Source: a virus (Duplodnaviria; Heunggongvirae; Uroviricota; Caudoviricetes). Taken from it: a DNA stretch of 6,552 bases. Positions 1 through 6,552 of this stretch are shown in pieces. Every line of letters begins with the position of its first letter. The first letter of the stretch is position 1. The stretch lies in the IMG/VR virus record IMGVR_UViG_2778261527_000003. The stretch is one strand, 5' to 3'. Under the pieces are notes generated by a model. The model was not told where the DNA came from. It was given only the letters and a program-made list of their open reading frames with translations, and ran no database searches. The translations under genes and the position numbers were made by a program.

Positions 1-564
1 TACCCGATACTTTTTCCATGCTTCCAGCAACGAGATTTCTTCCTCCGTTGCAATTTCCAGATCTGCAGCATCCTGAAGCGGCGCAATATGCTCACTGGCT
101 ACCTGCATCAGGTTGTTTTTTGTTTCTTCCGCCTCCCGGATCCGGAACAGTTTTTCTGCTTCCGTATCCTTCACCCAGGCTGTGCCGTTCCACTTCTGAA
201 ACTCCCCTTCCGGCGATAACCAGGTAACATTTTTCGGTAACGGACCGAGTTCAGAAATAAATAACGCGTCGCCGGAAGCCACGTCATAAACCGTTTTACC
301 CCGATGATCTTCAACGAGATGCCACGATGCCTCATCACTGTTGAAAACAGCCACAAAGCCAGCAGGAATATCTGGTGGTGCAATATCGGTACTGTTTGCT
401 GGCAGACCTGTATGAGGCGGAATATATGCGTCACCTTCACCAATAAATTCATTAGTTCCGGCCAGCAGATTATAAATTTTTATGGTCCGTGGTTGTTCAC
501 TCATTCTGAATGCCATTATACTCGCACCGAAAATGTCAGCCAGCTGCTTTTTGTTGACTTCCAT
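1..564 (-). CDS. tfa: In-frame fusion ORF: Nu1 codons 1-16 joined to a lambda Tfa-like tail fiber assembly protein; 3' end runs off the window start
   Basis: Own translation of the minus strand from ATG at 564..562 gives [16 protein letters not shown] (lambda Nu1 N-terminus as recalled) followed by [172 protein letters not shown], with no stop down to position 1. The second part matches lambda Tfa as recalled. Tfa's own ATG is at 516..514. Not in the ORF track because no stop lies inside the window. Confidence 0.8.
517..564 (-). pseudogene. nu1: Remnant of terminase small subunit gene Nu1 (first 16 codons only), immediately downstream of cosB
   Basis: [16 protein letters not shown] encoded at 564..517 on the minus strand; the homology stops abruptly and continues as tfa. 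Position relative to cosB R1 is as in lambda. Confidence 0.75.
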
Positions 565-584
565 TGTTCATTCCACGGACAAAA

Positions 585-713
585 ACAGAGAAAGGAAACG
601 ACAGAGGCCAAAAAGCTCGCTTTCAGCACCTGTCGTTTCCTTTCTTTTCAGGGGGTATTTTAAATAAAAACATTAAGTTACGACGAAGAAGAACGGAAAC
701 ACCTTAAACCGGA
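585..713 (-). other. cosB terminase-binding region: R1 (585-606), R2 (629-647, inverted), IHF site I1 (about 651-690), R3 (691-713)
   Basis: Three copies of the CGTTTCC(T/G)TTCT motif: R1 and R3 in one orientation, R2 inverted, with an AT-rich IHF-like segment between R2 and R3. Order cosN-R3-I1-R2-R1-Nu1 start as in lambda (recalled). Confidence 0.75.
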
Positions 714-741
714 AAATTTTCATAAATAGCGAAAACCCGCG

Positions 742-753
742 AGGTCGCCGCCC
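742..753 (-). other. cosN cohesive-end sequence (12 nt, GGGCGGCGACCT on the minus strand)
   Basis: Plus strand aggtcgccgccc at 742-753 is the reverse complement of the lambda 12-nt cohesive end; flanked by CGCGGGTTTTCGCTATT on the Nu1 side and GTTACG on the other side, as at the lambda end junction (recalled). Confidence 0.8.
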
Positions 754-952
754 CGTAACCTGTCGGATCGCCGGAAAGGACCCGCAAAATGATAATAATT
801 ATCATCTACATGTCACAACGTGCATCTACGCCATCAAACCACGTCAAATAATCAATTATGACGCAGGTATCGTATTAATTGATCCGCATCAACTTAACGT
901 AAAAACAACTTCAGACAATACAAATCAGCGACACTGAATACGGGGCAACCTC

Positions 953-1147
953 ATGTCAACGAAGAACAGAACCCGCAGAACAACAACCCGCAACATCCGC
1001 TTTCCTAACCAAATGATTGAACAAATTAACATCGCTCTTGATCAAAAAGGGTCCGGGAATTTCTCAGCCTGGGTCATTGAAGCCTGCCGTCGGAGGCTAA
1101 CGTCAGAAAAGATAGCATATACATCAATTAAAAGTGATGAAGAATGA
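953..1147 (+). CDS. ylcI: Small YlcI/YnfO-family (DUF3950) prophage protein, 64 aa, possible ribbon-helix-helix fold
   Basis: ORF MSTKNRTRRTTTRNIRFPNQMIEQINIALDQKGSGNFSAWVIEACRRRL...; basic N-terminus followed by a short strand-like segment and two helices. Family assignment from recall, not searched. Weak SD (GGGG) upstream. Confidence 0.55.
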   Translation: MSTKNRTRRTTTRNIRFPNQMIEQINIALDQKGSGNFSAWVIEACRRRLTSEKIAYTSIKSDEE

Positions 1148-1311
1148 ACATCCCGCGTTCTTCCCTCCGAACAGGACGATATTGTAAATTCACTTAATTA
1201 CGAGGGCATTGCAGTAATTGAGTTGCAGTTTTACCACTTTCCTGACAGTGACAGACTGCGTGTTGGCTCTGTCACAGGTTAAGTAGTTTGAATGATTAGC
1301 AGTTATGGTGA

Positions 1312-1518
1312 TCAGTCAACCACCAGGGAATAATCCTTCATATTATTATCGTGCTTCACCAACGCTGCCTCAATTGCCCTGAATGCTTCCAGAGACACCT
1401 TATGTTCTATACATGCAATTACAACATCAGGGTAACTCATAGAAATGGTGCTATTAAGCATATTTTTTACACGAATCAGATCCACGGAGGGATCATCAGC
1501 AGATTGTTCTTTATTCAT
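1312..1518 (-). CDS. ybcW: YbcW-like small prophage protein, 68 aa (lambda right-end orf family)
   Basis: [71 protein letters not shown]; GGAG SD 7 nt upstream of the ATG; same position relative to cos as in lambda/DLP12 (recalled). Confidence 0.7.
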
Positions 1519-1803
1519 TTTGTCGCTCCATGCGCTTGCTCTTCATCTAGCGGTTAAAATATTACTTCAAATCTTTCTGTATGAAGATTTGAGCACGTTG
1601 GCCTTACATACATCTGTCGGTTGTATTTCCCTCCAGAATGCCAGCAGGACCGCACTTTGTTACACAACCAATACTATTAATTGAAAACATTCCTAATATT
1701 TGACATAAATCATCAACAAAACACAAAGAGGTCAGACCAGATTGAAACGATAAAAACGATAATGCAAACTACGCGCCCTCGTATCACATGGAAGGTTTTA
1801 CCA

Positions 1804-2214
1804 ATGGCTCAGGTTGCCATTTTTAAAGAAATATTCGATCAAGTGCGAAAAGATTTAAACTGTGAATTGTTTTATTCTGAACTAAAACGTCACAATGTCT
1901 CACATTATATTTACTATCTAGCCACAGATAATATTCACATTGTGTTAGAAAACGATAACACTGTGTTAATAAAAGGACTTAAAAAGGTTGTAAATGTTAA
2001 ATTCTCAAGAAATACGCATCTTATAGAAACGTCCTTTGATAGGTTGAAATCAAGAGAAATCACATTTCAGCAATACAGGGAAAATCTTGCTAAAGCAGGA
2101 GTTTTCCGATGGGTTACAAATATCCACGAACATAAAAGATATTACTATACCTTTGATAATTCATTACTATTTACTGAGAGCATTCAGAACACTACACAAA
2201 TCTTTCCACGCTAA
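1804..2214 (+). CDS. ybcV: YbcV-like DUF1398 protein (putative envelope protein), 136 aa from ATG 1804
   Basis: ORF ...[51 protein letters not shown]...; GGAAGG SD 8 nt upstream of ATG 1804. The track ORF begins at TTG 1681 and an alternative ATG at 1762 lacks an SD. Sits between bor and ybcW as in lambda/DLP12. Confidence 0.7.
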
Positions 2215-2504
2215 ATCATAACGTCCGGTTTCTTCCGTGTCAGCACCGGGGCGTTGGCATAATGCAATACGTGTACGCGCTAAACCCTGTGTGCATCGTT
2301 TTTAATTATTCCCGGACACTCCCGCAGAGAAGTTCCCCGTCAGGGCTGTGGACATAGTTAATCCGGGAATACAATGACGATTCATCGCACCTGACATACA
2401 TTAATAAATATTAACAATATGAAATTTCAACTCATTGTTTAGGGTTTGTTTAATTTTCTACACATACGATTCTGCGAACTTCAAAAAGCATCGGGAATAA
2501 CACC

Positions 2505-2798
2505 ATGAAAAAAATGCTACTCGCTACTGCGCTGGCCCTGCTTATTACAGGATGTGCTCAACAGACGTTTACTGTTCAAAACAAACAGACAGCAGTAGCA
2601 CCAAAGGAAACCATCACCCATCATTTCTTCGTTTCTGGAATTGGGCAGAAGAAAACTGTCGATGCAGCCAAAATTTGTGGCGGCGCAGAAAATGTTGTTA
2701 AAACAGAAACCCAGCAAACATTCGTAAATGGATTGCTCGGTTTTATTACTTTAGGCATTTATACTCCGCTGGAAGCGCGTGTGTATTGCTCAAAATAA
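2505..2798 (+). CDS. bor: Bor lipoprotein (serum-resistance lipoprotein of lambdoid phages), 97 aa
   Basis: MKKMLLATALALLITGC... signal peptide with lipobox ITGC; full-length match to lambda Bor as recalled; opposite strand to the lysis genes as in lambda. Confidence 0.9.
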   Translation: MKKMLLATALALLITGCAQQTFTVQNKQTAVAPKETITHHFFVSGIGQKKTVDAAKICGGAENVVKTETQQTFVNGLLGFITLGIYTPLEARVYCSK

Positions 2799-2804
2799 TT
2801 GCAT

Positions 2805-2830
2805 GAGTTGCCCATCGATATGGTCAGCTC
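2805..2830. terminator. Imperfect hairpin between convergent bor and Rz (candidate bidirectional terminator)
   Basis: GAGTTGCCCAT-CGAT-ATGGTCAGCTC: 11-nt arms with 2 mismatches; lies in the 31 bp between the bor stop (2798) and the Rz stop (2830-2832). Confidence 0.4.
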
Positions 2831-3291
2831 TATCTGCACTGCTCATTAATATACTTCTGGGTTCCTTCCAGTTGTTTTTGCATAGTGATCAGCCTCTCTC
2901 TGAGGGTGAAATAATCCCGTTCAGCGGTGTCTGCCAGTCGGGGGGAGGCTGCATTATCCACGCCGGAGGCCGTGGTGGCTTCACGCACTGACTGACAGAC
3001 TGCTTTGATGTGCAACCGACGACGACCAGCGGCAACATCATCACGCAGAGCATCATTTTCAGCTTTCGCATCAGCTAACTCCTTCGTGTATTTTGCATCG
3101 AGCGCAGCAACATCACGCTGACGCATCTGCATGTCAGTAATTGCCGCGTTCGCTAGCTTCAGTTCTCTGGCATTTTTGTCGCGCTGGGCTTTGTAGGCGA
3201 TTGCGTTATCACGGTAATGATTGACCGCCCATGACAGGCTGACGATGATGCAGATAATCAGAGCGGATATAATCGCGGTTACTCTGCTCAC
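2830..3291 (-). CDS. rz: Rz inner-membrane spanin (i-spanin), 153 aa, apparent GTG start overlapping the R stop
   Basis: Translation [60 protein letters not shown]...INEQCR, lambda Rz-like; N-terminal TM segment. The codon aligned to the lambda Rz ATG is GTG at 3291..3289 (GTGA overlap with R stop) with GGGGG 7 nt upstream. The track start at 3303 is also GTG and lacks an SD. Confidence 0.8.
2889..3071 (-). CDS. rz1: Rz1 outer-membrane lipoprotein spanin (o-spanin), 60 aa, embedded in Rz in the +1 frame
   Basis: [24 protein letters not shown]...proline-rich...; lipobox VVGC; AAGGAG SD 7 nt upstream; entirely inside the Rz ORF as in lambda. Confidence 0.85.
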
Positions 3292-3785
3292 TGTTGCCCC
3301 CACAAACAGACTTCACGCTCAATCTCACGACGAGTCATCAGGCCTTTCCATTGCTTACCGCCAGCGTATGTCCAGCGACGCAGCTGATCACATGCGCCTT
3401 TGATATCGCCCTGGTTTATTTTGCGAAGAAGCGTCGATGTTCTAAAATTGCCAGCACCCACATTGTAAACGAATGAGTAAAGAGCGCCGCGCGTTGTTTC
3501 CGGTATATCGACTTTGATATACGGGTTAATTTGTCTGGCGACAGTGGCAAGGTCTTTATTCAAGAGTGCTTTGCATTCTGCTTTGGTATACGTTTTACCG
3601 AGCATGATGTCTTTTCCGGTGTGTCCGTGACATACAGTCCATACACCAACAATATCTTTGTATGGTATGTAGCTGACACCTTCCAGACCATCGTTACCAC
3701 TTGGGCCAGTGATTAACACTGATGCTATAGCAATTGCTCCGCCACCAATAGCAGCAGCAACGGCTTTTCGTAATGATGGAGGCAT
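3288..3785 (-). CDS. rrrD: SAR endolysin (T4-lysozyme-family muramidase with N-terminal signal-anchor-release domain), 165 aa, phage 21 R / RrrD type
   Basis: [56 protein letters not shown]...: Gly/Ala-rich weak TM (SAR) followed by an E-x8-D-x5-T catalytic motif; GAGGTG SD; start overlaps the holin stop (TAATG). Confidence 0.85.
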
Positions 3786-4000
3786 TATTCACCTCTCGCA
3801 GCCTTGCGCTTATCTTCTTTAATCTTGAAATAAAGGTTTGTCAGGTACGTCAGCAGGCCAAATACCAGGCTACCCAGCACACCTATTGCTGCCCACTGTG
3901 AGGGAGTGACTTTATCGAGCAGCTGTAAAAACCAGTAACCGGCACTACCTGCTGAGGTGCCATAGGCGACTCCAGTTGTTAACTTATCCATGAATTTCAT
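3785..4000 (-). CDS. essD: Class II pinholin with dual-start motif (phage 21 S / EssD type), 71 aa
   Basis: [71 protein letters not shown]: two TM segments, charged C-terminus, Met1-Lys-Phe-Met4 dual start; AGGTGG SD upstream of ATG 4000. The track ORF extends to an upstream start at 4045, not preferred. Confidence 0.85.
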
Positions 4001-4494
4001 AACCCCACCTCGCAGACAAAGCGGGTGTAAATTGAGGGAATACAACGTATCGCAAAAAAGCAGAAACGTAACTGACTCCGAGTCAGTGAATAACTCAGGT
4101 ATTGAGTTATCAGCTAATATCGAGACTCAAAAAATGGAAAAACCAGCTCGACGGCGGGTTTAAGCTGTGTGACGAAGTAACCACTCTTAACAGCATAACC
4201 AATTTTTTACGTACGTAAACCACTGAATGATATTTATGAGAATGCTACCGAGTGTTCAAAACATCACCACAAATACATAAGAAAACCTCAACAAATAACC
4301 AATAAATAATTTCCAGTGTTATTTTTAGCCGGTTTAAATTAAACAGACGAATTATAGAACCACCATAAATAACAGCCATTAATATAAATTAGCTAATAGA
4401 TTTATTTTTGTTCAAATAAGAGCCATAAATAGGTTTCGATAGAAAAAGTTCAGATAAAAATAGAGATCTACTTCACAAATTAAATGAGAAACTA

Positions 4495-4588
4495 AAACTT
4501 ACATCTTGAAATAATCACATTGATTAGATGAATATTTATCGCGCAGTGACATCATTTTTTAATAATAGTTCAAAAAAAAGGGCTCACG
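4495..4588 (+). promoter_or_regulatory. Porin promoter region with an OmpR-box-like element (about 4499-4518) and SD AAGGG at 4578-4582
   Basis: TTACATCTTGAAATAATCAC resembles ompC/ompF OmpR-binding half-sites (TTTACATTTTGAAACATCTA type, recalled). No unambiguous -35/-10 pair identified by eye. Confidence 0.35.
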
Positions 4589-5686
4589 ATGAAAAAATTA
4601 ACAGTGGCAATTTCTGCTGTAGCTGCATCAGTACTGATGGCGATGTCTGCTCAGGCAGCTGAAATTTATAATAAAGACAGTAACAAGCTGGATCTGTACG
4701 GGAAAGTTAATGCCAAGCACTACTTTTCCTCTAACGATGCAGATGATGGTGATACTACTTATGTTCGTCTTGGCTTCAAAGGCGAAACCCAAATCAACGA
4801 TCAGCTGACTGGTTTCGGTCAGTGGGAATATGAATTCAAAGGCAACCGCGCTGAATCTCAAGGTTCCTCCAAAGACAAAACCCGTCTTGCATTTGCAGGC
4901 CTGAAATTCGGTGACTACGGCTCAATCGATTACGGCCGTAACTACGGTGTAGCATACGACATCGGTGCGTGGACTGACGTTCTGCCAGAATTCGGTGGCG
5001 ATACCTGGACCCAAACAGATGTGTTCATGACTGGTCGCACCACTGGTGTTGCAACCTATCGTAACAACGACTTCTTTGGTCTGGTTGATGGTCTGAACTT
5101 TGCTGCTCAGTACCAAGGCAAAAACGATCGTAGCGATTTCGATAACTACACCGAAGGTAACGGTGATGGCTTCGGTTTCTCTGCTACCTATGAATACGAA
5201 GGATTCGGTATCGGTGCAACTTATGCGAAATCTGATCGTACCGACACTCAAGTTAATGCAGGGAAAGTTCTTCCTGAAGTATTTGCTTCCGGTAAAAATG
5301 CAGAAGTTTGGGCCGCAGGTCTGAAATATGACGCTAACAACATTTACCTGGCCACTACCTATTCTGAAACCCAGAATATGACTGTATTTGCTGATCACTT
5401 CGTTGCTAATAAAGCTCAAAACTTCGAAGCTGTTGCACAATATCAGTTCGATTTCGGTCTGCGTCCGTCCGTTGCTTACCTGCAATCTAAAGGTAAGGAT
5501 CTTGGAGTATGGGGCGATCAGGACTTAGTCAAATATGTTGATGTAGGTGCAACCTATTACTTCAACAAAAATATGTCTACTTTCGTTGATTACAAAATCA
5601 ACCTGCTTGACAAAAATGACTTCACTAAAGCACTCGGTGTAAGCACTGATGACATCGTTGCTGTAGGTCTGGTTTACCAGTTCTAA
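4589..5686 (+). CDS. nmpC: General diffusion porin of the OmpC/OmpF/PhoE family, prophage-encoded NmpC/Lc type, 365 aa precursor, intact
   Basis: Signal peptide [25 protein letters not shown]; porin-like beta-strand pattern rich in Gly/Tyr/Asp/Asn; C-terminal ...VGLVYQF with terminal Phe; located between Q and the lysis cassette on the opposite strand, as for nmpC in DLP12 and lc in PA-2 (recalled). Confidence 0.85.
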
Positions 5687-5696
5687 TCTGATTACG

Positions 5697-5736
5697 AAAA
5701 AGATATGTTGCGGGAGGCGTTGCCTCCCCAACATAT
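5697..5736 (-). terminator. Intrinsic terminator for minus-strand transcription, candidate tR' of the late operon
   Basis: On the minus strand: ATATGTTGGGGAGGC-AAC-GCCTCCCGCAACATAT (about 15-bp stem with one bulge) followed directly by CTTTTT (plus-strand AAAAA at 5697-5701). No U-tract on the plus-strand side. Confidence 0.6.
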
Positions 5737-5759
5737 AAGTGGCTCCCTCAAGCCACTTC

Positions 5760-5875
5760 CTTTAGGAGCACAACCTTGCTTCTAACTATATAAACCTTCT
5801 GTTATATATTACCCTTTATTTTTGGGGGCGTTGCAACGCCCCATTTTTAATAACTTTCAGTAAACAATTGGCATA
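5760..5875 (-). promoter_or_regulatory. Expected location of the Q-dependent late promoter (PR'-like) and Q-utilisation site
   Basis: Positional inference: immediately downstream of Q and upstream of the tR'-like terminator. Best sigma70-like candidate is TTGCAA (5831-5836) -N19- TAATAT (5806-5811) on the minus strand; spacing is non-canonical. Confidence 0.3.
5824..5850 (+). terminator. Rho-independent terminator for the porin / IpeX transcript
   Basis: GGGGCGTTGCAACGCCCC palindrome followed by ATTTTTAATAA on the plus strand; the minus-strand side is followed by CAAAAATAAAGGG, so it is unidirectional. Confidence 0.7.
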
Positions 5876-6259
5876 TTAATTAGAGTTATTAACAACGATA
5901 TCCATCTCTAACCGGATATCTAATGCCATTAACATCCCTTCAATTATGCCCTCAGCCTTCTGTAACCTTTTCCCGATATAACCATCAGAGCAGCAATGCT
6001 TACCTGCCAGTGACATGAATGTCATACCGACTACATAATAATCTACTAATAAATCGTGCAAATCGCTGTTGTTCTTTTTCAGACGGGCCATGCACCCGCA
6101 AATGATCATCGCGTCATCGTCACAACATTGCGGGCGAGATTTTACTTTTGAAGGAATTAATCCCTTAAAACCGGCGGCAATGGACGACCAGGTCACATCT
6201 TCATGATTATTAGCCGCCCACGCTCCCCAACGTTCAAGAACCATCTGAATATCACGCAT
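5876..6259 (-). CDS. quuD: Late-gene antitermination protein Q (QuuD-like), 127 aa from ATG 6259
   Basis: [60 protein letters not shown]...KHCCSD...; Cys-rich; GGAG SD 9 nt upstream of ATG 6259. The track start at 6274 is TTG. Matches DLP12 QuuD as recalled. Confidence 0.8.
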
Positions 6260-6276
6260 TAACTTTCTCCACAAAA

Positions 6277-6552
6277 TCAGGCCAGCACACCAATCGCCAG
6301 TGCGCGATCGATAAAACGAAATATCAGCTCCAGCTGGGAGCCATACTTCTCTTCAAATGCCACGGTACCCTGGCGACGCGCCTTACGCGTTAACCAGCCT
6401 TCTGCTTCCAGCCGTGCGATAGCCGTTCTGACGGTACTCATCCCCGCGCCAATCTGGCGGGCAATGGTTTCAATCGATGGCCAGCACACACCTTCGTCAT
6501 TACTGAAATCAGCCAGGCGGGCCATAATTGCCACGCTGGATAATTTCATGCC
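6277..6552 (-). CDS. Probable winged-helix/HTH DNA-binding protein, 90 aa or more; 5' end may lie beyond the window
   Basis: [64 protein letters not shown]...; the [17 protein letters not shown] segment looks like a recognition helix plus wing. The frame remains open to the window edge. Family not recognised with certainty. Confidence 0.5.

Follow-up and report, generated by a model that had tools for sequence, protein, structure and literature searches.

How did the beginning of Nu1, the gene for the small subunit of a lambda-type terminase, come to be read directly into a complete tfa, the gene for a tail fibre assembly protein, when in lambda the corresponding endpoints are separated by the remainder of Nu1, by genes A through J, and by lom and stf? 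This question is raised by the left end of the DNA stretch analysed here (6,552 nt, hereafter the window), where both gene parts lie on the minus strand. The join is a genuine deletion scar, and the element that carries it is a cryptic lambdoid prophage of DLP12 type in E. coli. The account developed below is that of an inherited scar of this type, created by a microhomology-assisted join, in which a final loss of a few kilobases is somewhat likelier than one large event and the resulting fusion is likely a relic; taken as a whole, we regard this account as very probable.

Translation of the minus strand from the ATG at 564-562 yields a frame that is free of stops as far as the window edge (188 codons) and in which 16 Nu1-derived residues are followed, in the same phase, by the N-terminus of Tfa; the tfa ATG at 516-514 (minus strand) is in frame with the Nu1 ATG at 564. 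The passage from Nu1 codon 16 into the tfa start, as described in the original prediction, is therefore borne out by translation, with the refinement that the Nu1 sequence kept amounts to 15 full codons plus 2 nt. Codon 16 of the fusion is an ATA composed of AT from Nu1 and the final A of the stf TAA stop codon, and the isoleucine is unchanged. It had also been remarked that this frame was missing from the ORF track, and rightly so, because it extends past the window end and ORFs that run off the end are unlisted. With the C-terminus supplied from the tfa allele that is 100% identical, the window ORF gives a complete predicted product of 207 aa, made up of the 16 Nu1-derived residues and the whole 191-aa Tfa.

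Alignment with lambda, which had been proposed as a way of locating the breakpoint and any microhomology, placed the join to within two nucleotides. Window positions 564-518 are identical to nt 1-47 of lambda Nu1, and positions 519-1 correspond to lambda 21970-22487 with 96.5% identity; the latter segment is a 100% match to the tfa of several lambda-like phages and of many E. coli genomes. The interval absent relative to lambda is 238-21971, or 21,734 bp. The BLAST pieces of the two homologies overlap by exactly 2 nt, an AT at 518..519 (minus strand), and the same overlap is obtained when the parents, ...GAGTAT^CC in Nu1 and ...GCAT^AATGG at the end of stf (the caret marks the break here and below), are compared with the product. 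Filler DNA is absent from the junction, which contains only the two parental sequences. An stf allele ending in GTATAA is present in strain GDSC2227PM (...CTTGTATAATGG), and if such an allele had been the parent the overlap would be GTAT, at 518-521.

The tfa part of the fusion lies at 1..516 on the minus strand and comprises codons 1-172 of 191, the gene exiting through the window start. From MAFRMSEQ onwards the fusion is collinear with lambda orf-194 over the full Tfa, and the Pfam family Caudo_TAP is matched by residues 88-207 of the 207-aa fusion with 146.1 bits against a cut-off of 22.1, Caudo_TAP_N also being listed. A cognate stf directly ahead, with the overlapping TAATG, is not found; stf is gone save for the final A of its stop codon. 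The fusion is included in a protein cluster of 9,381 members, of which the listed non-partial Tfa members are 191-194 aa long and start with MAFRMSEQ, and only two contigs in this cluster encode the 207-aa form. Since ordinary Tfa starts at MAFRMSEQ, the 16 residues that precede this motif are not a native N-terminus, which disposes of the possibility, raised at the outset, that they are simply how this tfa homologue begins in related phages.

Upstream of tfa, the Nu1 remnant (518..564, minus strand) retains its start codon and, ahead of it, a lambda-type cosN/cosB leader. Complete winged-helix DNA-binding and gpA-interaction domains are not to be found in the 15 codons and 2 nt that are left, and residues 1-19 of the fusion match the Pfam profile Phage_Nu1 (profile positions 1-19 of 164) with 17.6 bits against a cut-off of 30. 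Retention of cosB and of the Nu1 translation start had been anticipated, and alignment with lambda confirmed both and added cosN. The cosN cohesive end GGGCGGCGACCT (lambda nt 1-12) occupies 742..753 on the minus strand, is identical in alignment to that of lambda and K-12 DLP12, and is preceded by ...CGACAGGTTACG, matching the right end of lambda. The cosB region and Nu1 leader (lambda nt 13-190) follow at 565..741 on the same strand; within the 190 nt from cos through the leader there are 3 substitutions and a 1-nt deletion relative to lambda, all of them inside 565..741, and an inverted repeat, GGAAACGACAG / CTGTCGTTTCC, was detected within this region on the Logan contig that carries the fusion (L024). 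The lambda-type cosN/cosB is intact at window positions 565-753, and the window has no terminase gene of any kind.

That the scar belongs to a defective prophage, as originally proposed, holds up well: the element is lambdoid and of DLP12 type, and both flanks match DLP12. The late region of the window reads quuD, porin, essD, rrrD, rzpD (with Rz1 embedded), bor, ybcV, ybcW, ylcI and cos, which is the DLP12-type late order, with nohD coming next. To the right of the fusion, the Logan contig carries a pin-like resolvase gene, ynaE/ydfK, the ybcY methyltransferase gene, appY and ompT, so that the DLP12 right boundary beside ybcY - appY - ompT is found there as well. To the left, 10 kb of locus L023 end in an e14-like immunity region (S24 repressor, YdaS, CP76), short of the attachment site; NT1N25, a relative of the right arm, carries tRNA-Arg and intD.

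The DLP12 prophage of K-12 (nohD - aaaD' - 'tfaD - ybcY - tfaX - appY) resembles the window in late gene order, cos and right-hand neighbours, and it likewise represents a head-and-tail deletion that placed terminase genes beside tfa. It differs in that nohD is complete and some 300 nt of A remain, whereas the window retains 47 nt of Nu1 and a complete tfa. The suggestion that K-12 DLP12 could be used to place the breakpoint fails, as the K-12 junction is a different one (A' to Tfa at about residue 50), and an origin of the window from the K-12 junction is excluded, K-12 being without the first ~50 tfa codons.

Several other features of the prophage deserve mention. An nmpC-type porin gene (window 4589-5686, plus strand; 365 aa, Porin_1) is intact in the window prophage, in contrast to K-12 DLP12, in which the nmpC copy is interrupted by IS5. 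A second in-frame deletion scar is found at 6277-6549 (minus strand), with a break near 6370, immediately upstream of quuD; the 90-aa ORF that it created combines a HTH_36/GntR-type helix-turn-helix (residues 7-59) with the last ~30 residues of DUF968 (profile positions 144-171 of 171), and homology to strain TW14425 begins at window 6370. A seemingly intact Pin/Gin-family serine recombinase gene (L024 4813-5403; Resolvase + HTH_7, 196 aa) lies beyond the window, convergent with the fusion ORF and separated from the tfa stop by 98 nt, with no invertible segment or crossover site evident.

With regard to mechanism, the junction would be accounted for by illegitimate, microhomology-assisted recombination with endpoints at Nu1 nt 47 and at the final base of the stf stop. 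A short identity at the breakpoint without filler, as expected of a microhomology deletion, is what is observed (AT, or GTAT with the GDSC2227PM allele). In addition, a 9-nt identity, CATTCAGAA, is located at 504..512 (minus strand), where Nu1 nt 54-62 represent the deleted copy and tfa nt 5-13 the retained one; it sits 5-6 nt to the right of the breakpoint, with the two copies one base out of register. It is one of seven exact matches of at least 9 nt shared by the two parental regions (700 nt of cos/Nu1 and 2.5 kb of stf/tfa), and its proximity to the breakpoint has an empirical P of 5.2e-4 against random position pairs, in a test whose parameters were set after the match was seen. The most economical route would be a template switch or end-joining event anchored by this 9-mer and finished at AT (or GTAT): a nascent strand may have copied tfa leftwards through the 9-mer as far as AT and then re-paired on Nu1, with the 9-mer serving as the anchor and AT as the paired 3' end. 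Because the crossover itself falls outside the 9-mer, 5-6 nt away and with a register shift of 1 nt, we infer such an anchoring role without pressing it further.

No IS sequence is present at the junction. Quasi-sites of a Pin-type invertase were also considered as a cause and rejected on a scan for a single Din-type consensus. An invertase gene is present in cis, but sequences resembling the 26-bp crossover site of the Din family (Pin/Gin/Cin) were not found at either breakpoint: the consensus scanned had no match at up to 3 mismatches in L009 and L024, inspection by eye of Nu1 nt 47 and of the tfa start revealed nothing Din-like, and an inverted repeat linking tfa to pin is absent.

By itself, the junction does not reveal the number of steps by which it was reached, and it is the relatives of the two arms that bear on this point. 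For the left arm (window 518-6370) the closest relative, at 99.86% identity, is TW14425, whose Nu1 extends as far as nt 431 before a 1.2-kb stf remnant takes over. The right arm begins exactly at the AT and over 5.1 kb shares 99.82% identity with what is left at the DLP12 site in NT1N25, a strain in which the stf remnant measures 1.9 kb and has been joined to a point near bor/iss. B4103-1 has a full Nu1, scrambled tail-gene fragments and 2 kb of stf, and further junctions are found in S43 (Nu1 nt ~354 to stf) and GDSC2227PM (Nu1 codon ~172 to the stf end). Judged from these sequences, the DLP12 locus exists in many independently eroded states. Strain 2017-02-2CC (L028 737-1294) comes close to the window in that, following an intact cos, it has Nu1(1-30) and Tfa(38-end) fused in frame at a microhomology-type junction; this fusion, annotated as a tail fibre assembly protein of 185 aa, differs in its 5-nt TCTGC overlap and in the loss of the first 37 Tfa residues.

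The endpoints of the window fall outside those of its closest relatives, so a final deletion nested over older ones would be traceless; the same endpoints in a TW14425-like or B4103-1-like ancestor would correspond to a loss of ~1.6 or ~3.1 kb. The original prediction held that the junction implies a single large deletion. In lambda coordinates this would be one event of about 21.7 kb, stripping all head and tail genes from an otherwise complete lambda-like prophage. We consider this possible, if doubtful. It is compatible with the lack of leftovers from intermediate junctions, an observation that is non-diagnostic as a nested later deletion would look identical, but the nearest relatives of both arms, at 0.14% and 0.18% divergence, are already heavily deleted and have different junctions, and in B4103-1 the tail genes are reduced to scrambled fragments. 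A single event is thus not implied, and it is probably not the history of this prophage; a final step that removed a few kilobases from an already eroded prophage appears somewhat more likely than one 21.7-kb event. Two specific routes can be set aside. A simple deletion in a TW14425-like ancestor fits the left arm, but the tfa alleles of TW14425 and the window share only 96% identity and the right-hand neighbours differ too; an NCTC9040-type junction followed by a second deletion at ATAA is unparsimonious, the left arm being ten times closer to TW14425.

The breakpoints themselves are encountered elsewhere. Nu1 is also broken at nt 46/47 in NCTC9040, 1332KP and one IMG/VR contig, where it is joined to the last 7 nt of lom (GAGTAT^AAGTTCTGA), and in 2 HS-C, EcPNK006 and M23917, where the partner lies 32 nt past the tfa stop (GAGTA^CAAGAAC); these junctions are located at L001 3080-3100, L002 3085-3100 and L013 8674-8700. 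Both groups share with the window the cos/Nu1 remnant and a left breakpoint within 1 nt, but they have other partners on the right and lack a Tfa fusion. Divergence from the window amounts to 1.5-2.4% in their left arms, versus 0.14% for TW14425, and because the window is so much closer to TW14425, which keeps Nu1 to nt 431, the breaks at Nu1 nt 46/47 arose independently. On the tfa side, the breakpoint is shared to the nucleotide (GGGAT^AATGGCATTC) by an in-frame Nu1(142)-Ile-Tfa fusion of 326 aa (P0001) in the DLP12 loci of GCA_017721315.1 and GCA_015980445.1 (L014 6395-6405; the same gene at L015 2606-3586). There too the Nu1 site reads ...AT^CC, the codon changing from ATC to ATA; that fusion differs in its breakpoint at Nu1 nt 425, its other tfa allele and its K-12-like right arm without pin.

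A further site of repeated breakage is found just before residue 19 of tfa (...xTG^GCCGGAACT; GCCGGAACTAATGAATTT), where at least six unrelated left partners are joined in different prophages (L017/L018 ~4330; L019 ~4348; L020 ~2508; L021/L022 ~4153). The partners include the Stf N-terminus, Lom, J, a Q-type antiterminator and GpA, among others, all with a TG(G) overlap; chi-like sequences at these junctions show, by eye, partial resemblance only. The clustering at residue 19 looks stronger than the Nu1 coincidences, in a protein search that shows in-frame fusions only.

Two other groups break Nu1 at the same 1-2 nt with other partners, a reuse that plain random microhomology does not predict. 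One could imagine a process with a preference for certain sites or structures, by which lambdoid prophages are cut repeatedly at Nu1 nt 45-47 and at the beginning (5' end) of tfa; candidates are a quasi-site used by the Pin-type invertase encoded next door, the loop of a hairpin, or a nick site. Such a process would be in keeping with the finding that three genome groups each join Nu1 nt 46/47 to a partner of their own (the lom end, the start of tfa, and the position 32 nt past the tfa stop), with the joining of the tfa start to Nu1 nt 425 as well, with the at least six partners of Tfa residue 19, with the pin-like resolvase gene that adjoins tfa, and with the position of the three Nu1 breakpoints in the loop of a small predicted hairpin. 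The hairpin (Nu1 nt 37-54), however, does not exceed shuffled sequence in stability (z = -0.12) and was rejected as the cause; the Din-type consensus is unmatched within 3 mismatches, as described above, the inverted repeat between tfa and pin was not found, and each junction has its own patchy local homology. Moreover, the Nu1 classes are an ascertained sample, noticed for their likeness to the window junction, and the coincidence of two of them is of modest weight; on the assumption of 50-100 truncation classes, its probability is estimated at 0.03-0.1. A literature search for recurrent Nu1 or tfa breakpoints found nothing. A hot spot of this kind is thus improbable as an explanation of the window junction. 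The broader proposition, that the erosion of lambdoid prophages in E. coli is non-random and favours a few endpoints (Nu1 nt 45-47, the overlap of stf stop and tfa start, and codon 19 of tfa), each taken up independently by numerous partners, is rather improbable as well. If true, it would mean that a specific mechanism prone to breaks or switches, whether of an enzymatic or a structural kind, shapes the prophage remnants that survive, the window being one product, and the recurrence, if upheld across an unbiased census, would show that prophage erosion follows preferred paths.

Returning to the microhomology-assisted deletion, one may ask what became of Tfa synthesis. In lambda the tfa ATG is preceded by GAGG, tfa's own ribosome-binding site, which was lost with the deletion. 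For this reason, and in line with the original prediction, Tfa would need the Nu1 ATG as its start, and any Tfa made would depend on Q-driven late transcription. Expression of a Tfa extended by 16 aa is plausible as far as the sequence goes. The stf gene is absent from the element, however, and on this ground the fusion is most likely a neutral relic, its in-frame 207-aa ORF probably being an accident of phase. That the fusion was selected, the host or the prophage gaining from a Tfa translated at the Nu1 start, strikes us as very improbable, and no sign of selection emerged. Three in-frame Nu1-Tfa junctions are known (the window, L014 and L028) and could be read in this sense, but L014 came from a protein search that is blind to out-of-frame fusions, and the Nu1 junctions of TW14425 and GDSC2227PM enter stf-derived sequence out of frame. 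In addition, there is no stf left as a substrate for Tfa, and the junction is rare, occurring in 0 of 5,426 complete genomes.

The 207-aa protein was recovered by exact look-up from two assemblies besides the window, and the full fusion ORF is present at loci L023 and L024. One of the assemblies, NCBI GCA_904810445.1, has it on a contig of 208,660 nt that is recorded in three samples and differs from the window by 1 SNP in 6,552 nt; the other, Logan assembly SRR35139636, is 100% identical to the window over 4,655 nt. The exact junction DNA was not found in any of the 5,426 complete E. coli genomes, among which only three records cover both halves, as two pieces at least 700 nt apart, nor was it found in GTDB species representatives, IMG/VR or JGI metagenomes. 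Because two further assemblies carry it, the junction is neither a chance reading nor a one-off chimera; it is genuine and inherited in a small lineage. An assembly chimera of two repeated prophage sequences, which the original prediction had named as a possible undoing and which might be suspected from the multi-copy nature of cos/Nu1 and tfa (each at a median of 2-3 places per E. coli genome), has a practically negligible chance of being correct, given that the join shares 2 nt only, far short of what k-mer or repeat collapse would entail, that the same junction with its flanks occurs in separate assemblies of different origin, and that both flanks are collinear with the DLP12 locus.

The erosion of prophages by illegitimate deletion is a well-known process, and the window is a new instance of it, a case of ordinary decay with little consequence. 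The cryptic prophages of the DLP12 family are well known to decay step by step, and the window adds one more state to this series, although it matters little alone; absent from 5,426 complete genomes, the junction is a clean lineage marker. As to the retained cos, the terminase of an infecting lambda-like phage could in principle cut it, and packaging would then proceed towards tfa-pin-appY-ompT. The cos-nu1 and tfa regions of cryptic prophages recombine with infecting phage (PMC3945230), and an intact cos that lacks its terminase is the type of remnant with which infecting lambdoid phages can recombine (PMC3945230).
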